From: a virus
Taxonomy: Duplodnaviria; Heunggongvirae; Uroviricota; Caudoviricetes
Virus record (IMG/VR): IMGVR_UViG_2565956726_000008
DNA length: 64,000 nucleotides
Direction: 5' to 3' (one strand)
Position 1 is the first letter of the stretch, and each line of letters begins with the position of its first letter. Position numbers and translations under genes: made by a program. Positions 37,641 through 44,502 of this stretch are shown here, in pieces. A model generated the notes under the pieces. The model did not search any database and was not told where the DNA came from. It worked only from the letters and a program-made list of their open reading frames with translations.

Positions 37641-37766
37641 ATGAAGCAGCAAAAGGCGATGTTAATCGCCCTGATCGTCATCTGTTTAACCGTCATAGTG
37701 ACGGCACTGGTAACGAGGAAAGACCTCTGCGAGGTACGAATCCGAACTGGCAGACGGAGGCTCTGA
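37641..37766 (+). CDS. Hok/Gef-family toxin homolog with divergent, truncated C-terminus (possible pseudogene)
   Basis: 41-aa ORF MKQQKAMLIALIVICLTVIVTALVTRKDLCEVRIRTGRRRL; first 37 residues match HokD/RelF-type toxins as I recall them, then the frame departs from the canonical ...TGQTEVAVFTAYE... end. Confidence 0.55.
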   Translation: MKQQKAMLIALIVICLTVIVTALVTRKDLCEVRIRTGRRRL

Positions 37767-37848
37767 TTCGTAGACTACTAATCTGAGTAAAAGACCCAGC
37801 GGGGAAAGAACCACGCCGGGACTAGTTAATAAGATATTTATAGCGTGG

Positions 37849-38190
37849 CTATTCTTTTTTTGCGGTATAGACTTTTTCGCCTGAGAAGTCTGGAGCTACC
37901 CAAAAGTTAATATTAAACTGAGCATCATCGCTTAGTTCAACACGGTGCCAGTATTGTGGTGGGCTTGTTGCAAAAGCGCCAGCATTAATGACTACTTTTA
38001 TCTCCGGTTCAGTAGCATTCTCATCAGCAAAACCATAATATGTTACAGTACCTTCCATCACGCATAACTGTCCAAAAACACCTGCTGCTGTATTATGATG
38101 TGTTAATAACGCTGAAGGTACGTTCTCTTTTGTGAAGAACGGAGTTGAGCGTTTGATTACCCAGTCTTTAGGAATTCTCTTGTGTGTCAT
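37849..38190 (-). CDS. YeaR-like cupin (DUF1971-type)
   Basis: 113 aa from MTHKRIPKDWVIKRSTPFF; alignable with my recollection of E. coli YeaR (RSTPF..., NIDFFVAP-type end). Confidence 0.5.
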   Translation of the reverse strand: MTHKRIPKDWVIKRSTPFFTKENVPSALLTHHNTAAGVFGQLCVMEGTVTYYGFADENATEPEIKVVINAGAFATSPPQYWHRVELSDDAQFNINFWVAPDFSGEKVYTAKKE

Positions 38191-38558
38191 AACCACCTCC
38201 CATAAAACATGCATTATAAATGCACCTTTTTGAGGGTTATGTCAAGCTGTTATGAAACACATAATTGATATGTTGATTAGAGGAGAAGATAGAATCAATA
38301 TGGTTGTTTTTCGTATAACTATTTGTTTTACTTTTAGTTTGTGCATTCTGTGTGTTAGGAATAACTTATTAAAGTTTAACTAAAAAATCTCGATATAGTC
38401 CGCATAGATTACTGTTACTGAATCTTATTGTGTGCATTAGTTGTGTTCTGAAATTTCAATTTAATTACTTATGATATATTTTTAACGATAAATGTTTTCC
38501 GGGTGAAAGACAGTGGGGGATGAGATAAGCAATATATCATTAATCTTGATTATTTCCA

Positions 38559-38618
38559 GGATGCCTTTACTGTGCATATAAATAAATCATATACGCATCA
38601 AATAATGTAAAGGCATCC
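38559..38618 (+). promoter_or_regulatory. 12-bp perfect inverted repeat followed by a T-run (hairpin / terminator-like)
   Basis: ggatgcctttac (38559-38570) and gtaaaggcatcc (38607-38618), 36-nt spacer, followed by TTTT. Confidence 0.35.
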
Positions 38619-39057
38619 TTTTAGATATATCTTATCAAATGTTAATGATTTGAGTGGGAAACATGATTCCAGAAACTAATCATGCGGCTACTTTATAAAA
38701 ATAATGCCCATATAAAACAGCCAGCGAAAAGGATTACGGATAAAAAAGGAGCGAGATGTGCATAGTTGTTATTTTCCATGTTTAACCACCTTAAATAATT
38801 GATGATGACGGGATGTGCATCTGTAATGCTTTTGTTGAAATGTTATGATAAAAAAGAACTTTTTCATAACATTAAAATGTAATTTATCTAATCGTTTTTA
38901 ATAATAAGTGTTGTATTTCTATCCTTGTATCAGCTATTTGATATGTAGTGTTTGTTCATGTTATGTGGAGCTTTACACCATAGCCAGTTTATTTATACTT
39001 TATTCGTCAGCCTGAACAACTGGCATCTGCTGCACTGCGCCATCGAGAGATTGAGAA

Positions 39058-39657: not shown

Positions 39658-39947
39658 TGGTGGATTTACGTAAAGCGGCGCGGGGGCAGATGTGCACCGT
39701 CAGAATTCCTGGCTACTGCAATCACGATCCGGAAACGTCTGTGCTGGCGCATTACCGACTGGCGGGAACGTGCGGAACAGCGACAAAACCACACGATATG
39801 CAGGCGGCGATTGCCTGTAGCTCATGCCACGATCTAATCGACGGGCGGGTAAAAACCAGCGATTACACCAAAGAAGAATTACGCCTGATGCATGCAGAAG
39901 GTGTTTTTCGCACACAAGAAATCTGGAGAAAGGAGGGATATTTGTGA
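39657..39947 (+). CDS. YbcO-like putative nuclease (DUF1364)
   Basis: 96 aa; MVDLRKAARGQMCTVRIPGYCNHDPETSVLAHYRL...IACSSCHD closely resembles my recollection of DLP12 YbcO. Confidence 0.6.
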   Translation: MVDLRKAARGQMCTVRIPGYCNHDPETSVLAHYRLAGTCGTATKPHDMQAAIACSSCHDLIDGRVKTSDYTKEELRLMHAEGVFRTQEIWRKEGYL

Positions 39948-40486
39948 TTTACCCAACGAATACAGGAAAAAGCGGAGAACACCTTCGTCTCGCCACGCTG
40001 GAAAGTGTCTGGATTCAGGGCAAACTGCGTATGTGGGGGCGCTGGTCGTATATTGGCGGTGGCAGGTCAGGAAATATGTTCAATCAGTTGTTGGCATCCA
40101 AAAAATTGACGAAAACAGCCATCAATGAAGCCCTGCGCAGAATGAAAAAAGCGGGAATAGAGAAAGCTGAGCTGGAAGCGTTTTTGCGAGAGATGATCAA
40201 CGGCAAGCAAAAGAGCTGGCTGGCGCATTGTACTGATGCAGAGGCGTTATGTATTGATCGAGTCATAAGTGAGGTGCTGGCAGAGCATCCTGGATTGATT
40301 AGTGTCCTCCGGCAACGGTATGAAGGACGGGGGATGACTAAGCGCAAAATGGCTGAATTGCTAAATGATGCACATCCTGAGTGGTGTTTTAGCACATGCG
40401 AAAAGCGAATTGCTAATTGGTTGGCTGTTGCTGAGTATGCCCTATATATTCCCATGCGAGAATCATTTGCTCAAAAAATAGCTTGA
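39944..40486 (+). CDS. late-gene antiterminator Q-like protein, putative
   Basis: About 180 aa from GTG at 39944 (listed ORF starts earlier at 39824); last gene before the terminator and lysis cassette. Assignment is mainly positional. Confidence 0.4.
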   Translation: MIYPTNTGKSGEHLRLATLESVWIQGKLRMWGRWSYIGGGRSGNMFNQLLASKKLTKTAINEALRRMKKAGIEKAELEAFLREMINGKQKSWLAHCTDAEALCIDRVISEVLAEHPGLISVLRQRYEGRGMTKRKMAELLNDAHPEWCFSTCEKRIANWLAVAEYALYIPMRESFAQKIA

Positions 40487-40570
40487 TTTTTTACGCATAA
40501 ACTGCTTCAATTCCGGTATGCTTCGCAAAGCTGTATCGCGAGGCGAACCAAGCGCATGAACTTTACCAGA

Positions 40571-40598
40571 ACCCGCCATTGAGCGGGTTTTGTTGTTT
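40571..40598 (+). terminator. rho-independent terminator downstream of Q-like gene
   Basis: acccgc-cattga-gcgggt hairpin followed by TTTTGTTGTTT. Confidence 0.5.
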
Positions 40599-40707
40599 CT
40601 GGTACTGGTGAACCTGATGTTTCATTTCTGGAGCGCGATTCCTGGCGGAATACCTAGAATCGAGACATTCTGGTAAAATTGTTTTCAGTACAGGATGTGG
40701 AGGTGAG

Positions 40708-41277
40708 ATGAGAGAACTACCTAAAGATTATTTTTTAGGAGTAGATGATGAGCTCGTCGATTATCTTGAAAAACAAGGGGAAGAGACGATACGAGAGATT
40801 CATCTTTCTAACAAAACCAATGTTGAGAATGGATACAAACTTCTGAACATTCAGATTGTTGGAATTGGTTCATCTTTTTTATTGCTGACACAGAAAACTA
40901 ATTTCGATTTTCTCACCGCCGGAATTACCACATTTACATTACTATGGACATGGTGCGCCATTTACTTGGTATGTACTGGTTTATCTGTGAAGGTTAGGGG
41001 CCTGATCAATGCCCCTCCTGATCATATATATCATGAAAAATATAAGGATATGGAGCCCTCGAGCTTTAAAATATTCGCTGATGCAGGATATTTAGGACCT
41101 GATAAGTTATTGCCGCTTATACGAAGGTATCGCCTTGTTGACTTGAGTGATACAGCAAGAGAGTTACTGTTGGAAAATGAGAAAATCCGCACGAGTCTCG
41201 ATAAAGCAAGGATGTATACCATCCTTGCTCCGGTAGCGGCGATGTTTATCTCGGCTGTTTTTTTATATGTTCAATGA
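40708..41277 (+). CDS. predicted membrane protein (moron between Q and lysis genes), function unknown
   Basis: 189 aa; GGAGGTGAG RBS; hydrophobic helices (GIGSSFLLLTQ, FTLLWTWCAIYLVCTGL, ILAPVAAMFISAVFLYV); no family recognised. Confidence 0.5.
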   Translation: MRELPKDYFLGVDDELVDYLEKQGEETIREIHLSNKTNVENGYKLLNIQIVGIGSSFLLLTQKTNFDFLTAGITTFTLLWTWCAIYLVCTGLSVKVRGLINAPPDHIYHEKYKDMEPSSFKIFADAGYLGPDKLLPLIRRYRLVDLSDTARELLLENEKIRTSLDKARMYTILAPVAAMFISAVFLYVQ

Positions 41278-41407
41278 CTGAGTCGGCAGAATCTCCAACA
41301 AAAACACGACGTGTAGCAAAGTCTGTAGTACTTTGTGTTGGAGTTGGTTTTGGTGCCACGGGTTGCTGAGGTTTATTTTCACCTTGTGGTTTGTTTTTTT
41401 CAGACAT
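41246..41407 (-). CDS. small hypothetical protein (53 aa), convergent with the membrane-protein gene
   Basis: ATG at 41405-41407 with AAAGAGGA Shine-Dalgarno; low-complexity Pro/Gln-rich product MSEKNKPQGENKPQQPVAPKPTPTQSTTDFATRRVFVGDSADSVIEHIKKQPR; overlaps 3' end of 40708-41277 by 32 nt. Confidence 0.3.
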   Translation of the reverse strand: MSEKNKPQGENKPQQPVAPKPTPTQSTTDFATRRVFVGDSADSVIEHIKKQPR

Positions 41408-41500
41408 AAAAATCCTCTTTGTTTGAATTGTTACTTTTGGCGATTTAACGATATCAAACACGAGTATATACCGCCAGAAGCTTAATCTGGCACTCCATCT

Positions 41501-41527
41501 GGCCCCGGCATGTCCCGGGGCTTTTTC
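41501..41527 (+). terminator. rho-independent terminator upstream of holin (tR'-like)
   Basis: ggccccggcatgtcccgggg hairpin followed by CTTTTT, about 90 nt before the holin start. Confidence 0.5.
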
Positions 41528-41615
41528 GTTGTTAGGCTCTGGAAACATCCTCGACTTCTTGTTAGCAAGCCTGAGAGCCTGAATCTTACACTTAGCACCA
41601 TCCGAACTCTCGGAG

Positions 41616-41966
41616 GTGAGGCTTATGAAAATGCACAATGCCCCTCATTCCTGGCCTGACTTACTGGAACTCTTACAAAGTTGGTGGCGTGGAGATACGC
41701 CGCTGGGTGCAGTGGTTATGTCAATTATTATGGCTGGTTTGCGCATTGCCTATTTTGGCGGTGGCGGCGGCTGGAAACGAAAAACGCTTGAGATTCTGCT
41801 TTGTGGTGCTCTGACGCTGACCTTTGCATCCGCGCTTGAGTATGTCGGATGGCCTAAATCACTTTCTGTTGCCATTGGTGGTGGGGTGGGGCTGATTGGT
41901 GTTGATGCTATTCGTGGTGCGGCAATGAGGGTCATCGGTAACAAGTTCGGTGCCCATAAGGAGTAA
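41616..41966 (+). CDS. holin (lambda S-like, with dual-start motif)
   Basis: 116 aa; N-terminus MRLMKMHNAP offers alternative Met starts as in lambda S107/S105; hydrophobic helices; directly upstream of endolysin R. Confidence 0.6.
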   Translation: MRLMKMHNAPHSWPDLLELLQSWWRGDTPLGAVVMSIIMAGLRIAYFGGGGGWKRKTLEILLCGALTLTFASALEYVGWPKSLSVAIGGGVGLIGVDAIRGAAMRVIGNKFGAHKE

Positions 41967-41969
41967 TTA

Positions 41970-42446
41970 ATGCAGACACTTAATTCCCAGCGTAAAGCTT
42001 TCCTTGATATGGTGGCATGGTCAGAAGGAACAGATAACGGACGGCAGAAAACCAGAAATCACGGTTATGATGTTATTGTCGGTGGCGAACTGTTCACTGA
42101 TTACTCCGATCACCCCCGCAAACTTGTCACGCTAAATCCGAAACTCAAATCAACAGCCGCTGGACGTTACCAGCTTCTTTCACGCTGGTGGGATGCCTAC
42201 CGCAAGCAACTTGGCCTGAAAGATTTTTCTCCAGAAAGTCAGGATGCTGTAGCGCTGCAGCAGATTAAAGAGCGTGGCGCTTTGCCGATGATTGATCGCG
42301 GTGATATCCGTCAGGCTATCGACCGTTGCAGCAATATATGGGCTTCACTGCCGGGCGCTGGTTATGGTCAGTTCGAGCATAAGGCTGACAGTCTGATTGC
42401 AAAATTCAAAGAAGCTGGCGGAACGGTCAGAGAGATTGAGGTATGA
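41970..42446 (+). CDS. R: endolysin R (lytic transglycosylase)
   Basis: 158 aa; near-identical to lambda R as I recall it ([45 protein letters not shown]...). Confidence 0.93.
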
Positions 42447-42907: not shown

Positions 42908-43044
42908 AATCTTAACTACAATATGATTCATTTTGATGATTGTTTCATAAGGAACAGTGAAGTAAGATCTAAGAGGAGTTAAATTTTATACAGTATAATC
43001 ATAATATTGCAGCAAGGTGGTTATAATTGAAAGAATATTTAGAT

Positions 43045-44502
43045 ATGAATACATCTCATGTAAGAGTTGTTACTCATATGTGTGGGTTCCTGGTTTGGCT
43101 CTATAGTCTTTCAATGTTGCCACCAATGGTTGTAGCATTGTTTTATAAAGAAAAAAGCCTGTTCGTTTTCTTTATAACTTTCGTTATATTTTTTTGCATT
43201 GGTGGCGGAGCGTGGTATACAACTAAGAAATCTGGCATTCAATTACGTACCCGTGATGGGTTTATTATAATTGTAATGTTTTGGATTTTGTTTTCTGTTA
43301 TTAGTGCATTCCCTTTATGGATTGACTCAGAACTTAATTTAACGTTCATTGATGCTCTGTTTGAAGGGGTTTCTGGAATAACAACAACAGGAGCAACTGT
43401 AATTGATGATGTTAGTTCATTACCTCGGGCATATTTGTACTATCGGTCACAGTTAAATTTTATAGGTGGTTTAGGAGTTATTGTTCTGGCGGTTGCTGTA
43501 TTGCCATTATTGGGTATTGGTGGTGCAAAGCTTTATCAGTCAGAAATGCCGGGGCCATTTAAGGATGACAAACTCACTCCCCGCCTGGCCGATACGTCAC
43601 GGACACTGTGGATAACTTATTCTTTATTAGGTATTGCTTGTATTGTCTGTTATAGACTTGCAGGAATGCCTTTGTTTGATGCTATTTGTCACGGGATTTC
43701 CACAGTTTCGCTTGGTGGTTTCTCAACTCATAGCGAGAGTATCGGATATTTTAATAACTATTTGGTTGAGCTGGTGGCTGGTTCTTTTTCCCTGCTATCG
43801 GCTTTCAACTTCACTCTTTGGTATATTGTTATTAGCAGGAAAACGATAAAACCTTTAATCAGAGATATTGAACTTCGTTTCTTTCTGTTAATAGCCTTAG
43901 GGGTGATCATTGTTACCTCTTTCCAGGTCTGGCATATAGGTATGTATGACTTGCATGGAAGTTTTATTCATTCGTTTTTTCTTGCCAGCTCCATGCTCAC
44001 TGATAATGGTTTAGCTACGCAGGATTATGCAAGTTGGCCCACGCACACGATAGTGTTTTTGCTGTTGTCAAGTTTCTTTGGGGGATGTATAGGTTCAACT
44101 TGTGGTGGAATTAAGTCACTTCGATTTCTTATACTTTTCAAACAAAGCAAACACGAGATAAATCAGCTTTCTCATCCCAGAGCGTTGTTGAGTGTAAATG
44201 TAGGAGGGAAGATAGTTACAGATCGTGTAATGAGGTCTGTATGGAGTTTCTTTTTTCTTTATACTCTCTTCACGGTGTTTTTTATACTGGTGTTAAATGG
44301 TATGGGATATGATTTTCTTACATCATTTGCAACAGTGGCTGCATGTATTAATAATATGGGATTAGGTTTTGGGGCTACTGCATCGTCATTCGGAGTGCTT
44401 AATGACATTGCAAAATGTTTAATGTGCATAGCTATGATTCTTGGTCGCCTTGAAATTTATCCTGTTATTATATTGTTTTCAGGTTTTTTTTGGCGCTCCT
44501 AA
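43045..44502 (+). CDS. trkG: Trk system potassium uptake protein TrkG
   Basis: 485 aa from MNTSHVRVVTHMCGFLVW; matches recollection of K-12 Rac trkG; AT-rich, multi-TM. Confidence 0.9.
   Translation: MNTSHVRVVTHMCGFLVWLYSLSMLPPMVVALFYKEKSLFVFFITFVIFFCIGGGAWYTTKKSGIQLRTRDGFIIIVMFWILFSVISAFPLWIDSELNLTFIDALFEGVSGITTTGATVIDDVSSLPRAYLYYRSQLNFIGGLGVIVLAVAVLPLLGIGGAKLYQSEMPGPFKDDKLTPRLADTSRTLWITYSLLGIACIVCYRLAGMPLFDAICHGISTVSLGGFSTHSESIGYFNNYLVELVAGSFSLLSAFNFTLWYIVISRKTIKPLIRDIELRFFLLIALGVIIVTSFQVWHIGMYDLHGSFIHSFFLASSMLTDNGLATQDYASWPTHTIVFLLLSSFFGGCIGSTCGGIKSLRFLILFKQSKHEINQLSHPRALLSVNVGGKIVTDRVMRSVWSFFFLYTLFTVFFILVLNGMGYDFLTSFATVAACINNMGLGFGATASSFGVLNDIAKCLMCIAMILGRLEIYPVIILFSGFFWRS

Follow-up and report, generated by a model that had tools for sequence, protein, structure and literature searches.

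A probable mobile two-gene cassette, encoding a predicted membrane protein and a small convergent partner, between the late antiterminator and lysis genes of a Rac prophage

What kind of genes occupy the interval between the late antiterminator gene and the lysis genes of a Rac prophage, and do they belong together? We addressed this question in a 64,000-nucleotide (nt) stretch of tailed-phage DNA (Caudoviricetes; IMG/VR record IMGVR_UViG_2565956726_000008), hereafter the window, where an original prediction made from the letters alone had placed a membrane-protein moron and a small convergent open reading frame (ORF). The first gene (40708–41277, + strand; phrog_11870, function unknown) encodes a protein of 189 amino acids (aa) and the second (41246–41407, − strand; phrog_14506) a protein of 53 aa, as judged from the ORF list, PHROGs and homologues. 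We conclude, with a probability of roughly 85%, that the two form a horizontally mobile accessory cassette, a moron in Hendrix's sense, and that in this complete Rac prophage they fill a variable slot with the late leader (Q, pR′ and tR′) on one side and the lysis genes on the other.

Both reading frames agree in detail with the original prediction. The 189-aa ORF has the strong ribosome-binding site attributed to it (Shine-Dalgarno sequence GGAGG at 40699–40703, 4 nt ahead of the ATG), and the convergent 53-aa ORF, with AGAGGA 5 nt ahead of its ATG at 41407, runs to a stop at 41246 and overlaps the larger gene by 32 nt at the 3′ ends (41246–41277). The ORF pair exceeds chance, given homologues in many genera and the coding substitution pattern of the small ORF. 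Intact loci were reached in three ways, by homology to the large protein, by homology to the small protein and by a DNA pattern in viral contigs. The small ORF was present in every locus with an intact 189-aa gene (~45 of ~45 enterobacterial loci), always convergent and with an overlap of 20 or 32 nt, and in three look-ups that started from the small protein it never occurred without the 189-aa gene. Conservation of both genes extends over Escherichia, Citrobacter, Klebsiella, Salmonella, Serratia, Yersinia, Pantoea, Providencia, Trabulsiella and Leclercia. Every locus examined was a prophage, and in all enterobacterial loci examined the pair lay between the antiterminator Q and the holin. The 189-aa frame was broken (early stop, partial match) in single genomes of Leclercia adecarboxylata, Symbiopectobacterium purcellii and Yersinia pekkanenii, with an intact small ORF beside it in Leclercia; the cassette thus decays in some prophages.

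The small protein is rich in proline, glutamine and lysine, with a conserved M-S start, a proline-rich middle, the motif R-x-x-V-G-D-S-A-(D/E) and a lysine-rich tail. Its frame is open in all loci, at 47–53 aa. Outside the overlap, the proportion of synonymous differences (pS) reached 0.4–0.95, near saturation, and that of nonsynonymous differences (pN) 0.05–0.47; the ratio of nonsynonymous to synonymous rates (dN/dS) was 0.06–0.52 where computable, and differences at codon positions 1, 2 and 3 numbered 766, 611 and 1275. This pattern indicates a real gene under purifying selection at the protein level. The opposite view, in which the small ORF results from misannotation and conservation is limited to a non-coding promoter/hairpin region, draws on its short, low-complexity and predicted disordered product and on a disagreement over its start. 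The Prokaryotic Genome Annotation Pipeline (PGAP) begins a 71-aa protein at GTG 41461, and phrog_14506 also has 71 positions, while the original prediction had chosen ATG 41407. The 18 extra N-terminal codons of the PGAP version (41408–41461) are not conserved and cover the promoter/hairpin element described below. Only the ATG 41407 start is conserved, so it is the PGAP call that needs correction. With start, Shine-Dalgarno sequence and VGDSA motif all kept despite near-saturated nucleotide divergence, dN/dS well below 1 and third-position changes in excess, we regard the artefact as scarcely credible. No signal peptide, transmembrane (TM) segment or hydrophobic segment was predicted in the small protein, and AlphaFold2 gave it a predicted template-modelling score (pTM) of 0.22 with one short helix (residues 42–50). 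The model thus depicts a protein that has no independent fold, as would suit a peptide that binds a partner.

Is the pair a fixed part of this late region or an insertion? The sequence to its left is the late-operon leader of this Q type (40487–40602, + strand), delimited by matches to Escherichia coli genomes. The ~120 nt that follow the Q gene (window 40480–40602) had matches at ~90–100% identity in ~1490 of 5426 complete E. coli genomes, O157:H7 strains included. Only 223 of these matches continue into the cassette (~4% of the 5426 genomes), which sets the left cassette boundary at ~40602. Strain ATCC 8739, for example, has this leader as well, but with two tRNA genes and another lysis cassette behind it. 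The G+C content over 40600–41500 is 0.38–0.43, compared with 0.45–0.53 upstream and 0.47–0.55 in the lysis genes. The leader is presumably the pR′/qut/tR′ short late transcript region tied to this Q type; such a leader could give a short terminated RNA like StxS of Stx phages.

The terminator-like hairpins that the original prediction had noted on both sides of the membrane-protein gene were recovered within a few bases of the positions given there. The left one, within the leader (40567–40592), has 10 pairs and a T-rich tail (−18 kcal/mol, z −3.7 vs. shuffles); the right one (41501–41522) has 8 pairs, 7 of them G-C, followed by TTTTTCGTT (−16.4 kcal/mol, z −2.9). Both fold better than all 200 shuffles. 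A consensus scan of 40300–41800 returned exactly two terminator-like sites, both on the + strand, and found no intrinsic terminator on the minus strand; the transcript of the small gene may therefore run antisense into the 189-aa gene. Scanning and folding define the right-hand element as a hairpin GCCAGA...TCTGGC (41473–41491) followed by the intrinsic terminator with its T tract (41473–41532 in all, + strand), which would stop + strand transcription that is not antiterminated ahead of the holin. Terminators equivalent to 41501–41522 occur in most other cassette loci, and the presumed tR′ terminator after Q precedes the cassette in most aligned loci.

Between the leader and the 189-aa gene lies a cassette-specific promoter-like element, ATTCTGGTAAAAT (40667–40679, + strand), recognised by motif conservation. 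It has the form of an extended −10 (TG-G-TAAAAT), with TG at 40671–40672 and the −10 hexamer TAAAAT at 40674–40679, 28 nt ahead of the ATG. TAA(A/G)AT recurs 28–37 nt ahead of the 189-aa start codon in 10 of 13 distinct cassettes, within a wider motif ATTC(A/T)GGTAA(A/G)AT, and the motif ATTCWGGTAARAT is confined to loci with the cassette. This conservation suggests promoter function, with a predicted start near 40686(+). In two Serratia prophages (L008 and L009; 4754–4939), a gene for a 61-aa zinc-finger protein of the Ogr/Delta family, the family of P2-type late activators, lies between tR′ and the cassette, directly ahead of the 189-aa gene. Taken together, the absence from same-leader prophages, the lower G+C content, the own terminator and the −10-like element uphold the part of the original prediction that called the gene a moron in the slot between Q and the lysis genes.

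The original prediction had offered superinfection exclusion, abortive infection and lysis timing as functions, and the last of these now appears the least likely. Such a lysis accessory would be a late membrane protein that tunes holin triggering or membrane state, in the manner of an antiholin or lysis-inhibition factor, with the small protein as its cytoplasmic regulator. The neighbours of the slot make this a natural proposal. As had been predicted, a Q-like gene borders it on the left and a holin on the right, according to Pfam, PHROG and NCBIfam matches. The late antiterminator gene (39944–40486, + strand, PGAP start) matches Pfam DUF1133 at 1e-106 and Phage_antitermQ at 5e-6, as well as the PHROG "anti-termination protein Q-like"; the lambda-family holin (41625–41966, + strand, PGAP start) matches Pfam Phage_holin_3_1 at 2e-27 and TIGR01594 at 5e-41. 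The pair immediately precedes the holin and follows pR′/tR′ in all enterobacterial loci, so that Q read-through must co-express it with the lysis genes, and the conserved TM helix predicted in this inner-membrane protein contains small and polar residues. However, a terminator separates the 189-aa gene from the adjoining holin, and no co-inheritance with one holin type was seen. At least four unrelated holin families (PF05106, PF16080/PF04971, PF16083 and PF16931) and several endolysin types stand beside the pair, whereas antiholins are normally holin-specific; the Q families beside it are likewise diverse (DUF1133, PF06530, PF03589 and PF06323). The adjacent holin also has its own M-K-M double start (41625–41633), a pattern that by analogy with lambda S (S107/S105) would encode its own antiholin form. 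Neither holin nor antiholin families were matched in Pfam, PHROGs or NCBIfam (for 66 relatives, in Pfam). Finally, most related prophages with the same Q lack the cassette, the small gene points against late transcription, and the membrane protein has its remote relatives in tail operons. On balance we find a lysis accessory unlikely.

These remote relatives came from a profile search of 1.84 billion representatives, which gave 102 relatives at E up to 1e-3, mostly of 160–200 aa. The named ones belong to the Burkholderiales (Pandoraea, Alcaligenes and Pigmentiphaga), and all those examined lie in prophages on the late-gene strand. Their slots are the junction of DNA-circulation and baseplate genes in a Mu-like tail, the junction of tail chaperone and tape measure, and the position after the tape measure; one lies between the replication/regulatory region and the terminase. 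They are single-gene insertions with their own terminators and without the small partner. Occurrence in tail operons and without a partner implies an accessory function for the membrane protein, tied neither to the holin nor strictly to the small protein, and the pattern is that of accessory rather than core genes. Remote relatives at loci L021–L025 and L087 adjoin insertions encoding predicted lipoproteins or secreted proteins in tail operons, which suggests that tail slots of Burkholderiales prophages hold small accessory-gene clusters. HK97 gp15 was considered as a relative on the grounds that remote relatives occupy the same tail slot, and was rejected as an unrelated protein of 62 aa.

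Having established that the pair is inherited together in Enterobacterales, we asked how much of its layout belongs to the cassette itself. Ahead of the small gene lies an extended −10 promoter-like element, TG-A-TATCGT (41448–41456, − strand), with TG at 41456–41455 and the hexamer at 41453–41448; the predicted start is near 41441, leaving a 5′ untranslated region of ~34 nt. All 12 distinct cassette loci found by protein homology have the motif TGnTAYNGT 37–48 nt ahead of the small-ORF ATG, a degree of conservation that suggests promoter function. The same region holds a conserved imperfect 13-bp inverted repeat with a 12-nt loop (41421–41459, + strand), supported by conservation, pairing and folding. 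Its arms are GTTTGAATTGTTA and TAACGATATCAAAC in the window, with the consensus TCTGATATGGTTA and TAACGATATCAGA, and inside it lies a near-invariant 21-nt box, TGGCGATTTAACGATATCAGA, which the window matches at 41438–41458 with one mismatch. In the repeat, 81.6% of cells pair, as opposed to 32–49% in the slid controls; 3 cells are compensatory and G-U pairs are numerous on the + strand, so that covariation lends modest support to a putative + strand RNA hairpin. Rfam had no match on either strand of 39800–42100. A repeated CATTCAGG motif was considered as an operator and dismissed as inconsistent across loci; a sigma-54 or boxA/nut-like reading of the box, considered by eye only, was unsupported.

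The exact box was found in 47 lambdoid contigs of IMG/VR, ~20 of which carry the cassette. The start codon ~25–35 nt from it always belongs to a reverse-oriented gene, the identity of which varies: at least seven unrelated alternatives include a 67-aa zinc-ribbon protein, DUF2441 proteins, a weakly GhoS-like protein and several of unknown family. What follows the box on the + strand is either a hairpin, a terminator and the holin or else tRNA genes. As the box precedes unrelated reverse genes, the promoter region of the small gene belongs to a "reverse cargo" slot of the phage backbone and not to the cassette. The GhoS-like case is a reverse 94-aa gene with a weak match (E = 9e-4, 19.6 bits vs. 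a curated cut-off of 21), facing a convergent 61-aa forward ORF; in the GhoT membrane-toxin system, GhoS acts as the antitoxin.

This shared slot raises the possibility of two independent cargo genes in one hot spot, the membrane protein being a lysogenic-conversion factor unrelated to phage (e.g., an ion or stress-related channel) and the small gene one of many reverse-slot cargoes. In other lambdoid contigs the extended −10 and hairpin precede seven or more reverse genes that are unrelated, which would fit this explanation, as would the remote membrane-protein relatives that occur without the small gene and the record of the Q-to-holin slot as a site of conversion genes such as the reverse-oriented nmpC of DLP12. 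It sits poorly, however, with the co-occurrence in ~45 of ~45 intact enterobacterial loci reached by three routes, with a small protein that was never met alone in the three look-ups from it, and with a 3′ overlap kept despite near-saturated synonymous sites. We therefore consider independent cargo doubtful and retain the linked cassette as the preferred explanation.

What, then, might the membrane protein do? At E up to 1e-3 it has 104 homologues; all named ones are from Enterobacterales, nearly all are exactly 189 aa long, and all are annotated as hypothetical, none with a Pfam domain. An alignment of 42 sequences has 22 invariant residues, and the most conserved stretch is ENGYKLL-x-I-x-IVGIGSSFLLLTQ. 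Hydropathy and charge predict TM segments at ~45–62, 69–92 and 169–189, of which the last two are strongly hydrophobic and the first moderately so (~1.4 on the Kyte-Doolittle scale, calculated by hand); TM1 (~45–62) carries the invariant motif IVGIGSSF. An AlphaFold2 model built on the 42-sequence alignment is all-helical, with a mean predicted local distance difference test score (pLDDT) of 80.8 and a pTM of 0.64, and its helices (14–62, 68–92 and 134–188) cover all three TM segments. Hydropathy and model thus concur with the original prediction, which had counted about three TM helices and had called for structure prediction. The N-terminal 44 residues are acidic (11 D/E vs. 6 K/R), and the stretch 93–168 has 14 K/R. 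The likely topology is therefore N-terminus in and C-terminus out, with TM1 and TM3 continued in the model by a cytoplasmic two-helix stalk; the predicted cytoplasmic parts are the acidic N-terminal helix and a basic region with a long helix between TM2 and TM3. No enzymatic domain was predicted.

Database searches placed neither protein in a described family, and the original prediction had likewise recognised neither: they matched only PHROGs of unknown function. For the 189-aa protein of the window, Pfam gave no match at E up to 0.1 and NCBIfam none; Pfam searches of 66 relatives (E up to 0.01) gave only marginal, inconsistent matches, at E > 0.001, to unrelated families of unknown function. 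PADLOC-DB 2.0 had no match for either protein at E up to 1, and neither protein matched a toxin or antitoxin family in Pfam or PADLOC. The best fold matches in the PDB were long-helix bundles of the BAR type and helices of G-protein-coupled receptors at 4–16% identity, which we treat as generic. Foldseek against viral structures gave nothing with E < 0.2, the 42-sequence profile found nothing below E = 0.06 among PDB sequences, and tblastn against 50,697 phage records returned only the protein's own family. Across Pfam, NCBIfam, PHROGs, PADLOC, the PDB and the fold searches, no homology to a holin, antiholin or lysis regulator emerged; such homology would have contradicted the original prediction. 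SLATT, Kiwa KwaA and CorA-like channels were considered as identities; no profile match supports any of them. A literature search on the slot, the accessions and the PHROG identifiers found nothing on either protein beyond one preprint that merely lists predicted prophages carrying them.

In the absence of a recognisable family, resemblance to a functional class offers some guidance. We tentatively suggest, at somewhat less than even odds, that the membrane protein is a phage-exclusion or abortive-infection effector and the small protein its antagonist or modulator. Under this proposal the 189-aa product would insert in the inner membrane by three helices and expose a long cytoplasmic two-helix stalk, and the near-invariant, small-residue-rich TM1 (IVGIGSSF) would suggest an oligomeric or channel-like assembly. 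The gene's own −10 element would drive weak transcription, and Q-antiterminated read-through would add strong transcription after induction, while the small gene would be read in the opposite direction from the extended −10 promoter downstream of the membrane-protein gene. With a + strand terminator beyond the small gene's promoter and no minus-strand terminator detected, transcription of the two units should collide, with complementary RNAs as the result. The membrane protein may be held down in the lysogen by the small gene and its antisense transcript, and late transcription would reverse the ratio; the small disordered cytoplasmic protein might antagonise or modulate the effector through the antisense transcript and probably also by binding.

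A bolder version of this proposal would see here a new antisense-coupled pair of membrane effector and peptide antagonist, in which late Q-dependent transcription overruns the small gene's promoter and flips the balance, and would take the 38-nt hairpin with its extended −10 as a general "reverse cargo" slot from which lambdoid prophages of Enterobacterales express interchangeable lysogen-phase genes beside the lysis cassette. We think this version rather unlikely as a whole. If true, it would describe a switch by which a membrane-active protein is armed only upon induction or when infection leads to loss of the labile peptide, and the reverse-cargo slot would be an unexplored hot spot for defence or conversion genes.

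The same convergent layout could also be that of a type I-like addiction pair that stabilises the prophage, in which the mRNA of a membrane toxin is controlled by the convergent 3′-overlapping transcript and the small protein is secondary. With a + strand terminator beyond the small gene, the two RNAs would be complementary over ~200 nt, much as in the type I toxin-antitoxin systems with convergent 3′ overlap known from Bacillus subtilis prophages (bsrG/SR4 and txpA/RatA). Yet purifying selection clearly acts on the protein that the small ORF encodes, and a 189-aa protein with large soluble parts is unlike type I toxins (<60 aa). Remote homologues standing alone, the truncated or frameshifted 189-aa copies in Leclercia, Symbiopectobacterium and Yersinia, and the lack of a toxin-antitoxin family match in Pfam and PADLOC argue in the same direction, and we hold an addiction pair to be very unlikely.

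Several observations also weigh against an exclusion effector with a dedicated antagonist. Homology provides no evidence for any function, PADLOC included. Partnerless remote homologues indicate that toxicity or dependence on a partner is not obligatory for the membrane protein, and so weaken the picture of a strict toxin/antitoxin pair; a promoter region common to unrelated cargo genes means that part of the apparent "design" belongs to the backbone slot. The strict holin-adjacent position in Enterobacterales would equally be expected of a lysis-related function, and the same Rac prophage already carries sieB. As for the proposed expression, the forward element has no conserved or recognisable −35, is missing in 3 of 13 distinct cassettes and was not called by a consensus promoter scan.

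The element that hosts the cassette is a complete Rac prophage at ttcA, with intR, xisR, ralR, recET, kilR, sieB, ydaSTUV and head and tail genes. The Rac of E. coli K-12 has a deletion that runs from ydaW, a fragment of a DUF1627-family gene, to rzpR, and so lacks Q, cassette, holin and endolysin. This deletion probably explains why the cassette has escaped study, and it makes K-12 a clean test host. In the window, the Q-like gene is preceded by a DUF1367 gene and a YbcO-like gene, and the holin is followed by a GH24 endolysin, Rz/Rz1, and then trkG and a ParB-like gene. The trkG gene (43027–44502; K+ transporter, 491 aa), directly after Rz/Rz1, has a G+C content of 0.33–0.43, far below that of the lysis genes, and constitutes a second accessory insertion in the late region, one already known from K-12 Rac. 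Farther upstream, in the region 37641–39050, we noted a 41-aa ORF of the Hok/Gef type (37641–37766, + strand), a reverse DUF1971 gene (37849–38214, − strand) and, just ahead of the DUF1367 gene, an AT-rich stretch without a long ORF (~38200–39000; G+C 0.27–0.34).

The cassette is common and conserved, with a tidy regulatory layout, and is not surprising in kind. Although ~4% of complete E. coli genomes and prophages of many Enterobacterales of clinical relevance carry it, no described family accounts for either protein. A membrane protein that excluded or aborted other phages would represent a new family of prophage-encoded immunity, of interest for phage therapy against Klebsiella, Serratia, Salmonella and E. 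coli. Should the convergent layout be a lysogeny-to-lysis switch, it would offer a compact case in which colliding transcription regulates genes. The hairpin and extended −10 that other reverse genes share could serve as a simple sequence handle for more uncharacterised lysogen-phase cargo.

Of the systems already described, the HK97 pair of forward and reverse morons and the Sie/Rex-type membrane proteins come nearest in concept. Phage morons in general (lambda lom and bor; HK97 gp15 and gp22/gp23) are similar in being extra units among conserved late genes, with a promoter-like element, a terminator, a deviating G+C content and absence from close relatives, and HK97 gp22/gp23 is likewise annotated as a pair of forward and "reverse moron" overlapping at the 3′ ends. 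There is no sequence relationship to these morons (HK97 gp15 has 62 aa), and the cassette differs in being an obligately linked pair conserved across a bacterial order and in occupying the Q-to-holin slot rather than the tail region, remote relatives excepted. Cargo of the Q-to-holin slot itself, namely stx and the lc/nmpC porin of PA-2 and DLP12, shares the position downstream of Q/pR′/tR′ and upstream of the holin, and nmpC of DLP12 shares the reverse orientation. Q read-through drives stx, and the same is expected for forward cargo of the slot. The products are unrelated, however, and the conserved box and hairpin are absent from DLP12 upstream of nmpC. The bsrG/SR4 and txpA/RatA systems also pair a prophage membrane-protein gene with a convergent transcript that overlaps its 3′ end, whereas in the cassette the partner codes for a conserved protein and the membrane protein has three times the size of type I toxins. 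With toxin-antitoxin pairs in general, the cassette has in common two adjacent genes that are inherited together in all intact enterobacterial loci. The membrane proteins of exclusion and abortive systems (P22 SieA, SieB of lambda, P22 and Rac, lambda RexB and T4 Imm) differ from ours, as neither the 189-aa protein (E up to 0.1) nor its 66 relatives (E up to 0.01) match them in Pfam, and as the predicted topology is distinctive, with an N-terminal cytoplasmic helix, two TM helices, ~75 cytoplasmic residues and a third TM helix. They are nonetheless small, prophage-encoded inner-membrane proteins without enzymatic domains, a description that the 189-aa protein shares with its predicted TM helices, and by this analogy they would be the most likely functional class for it.

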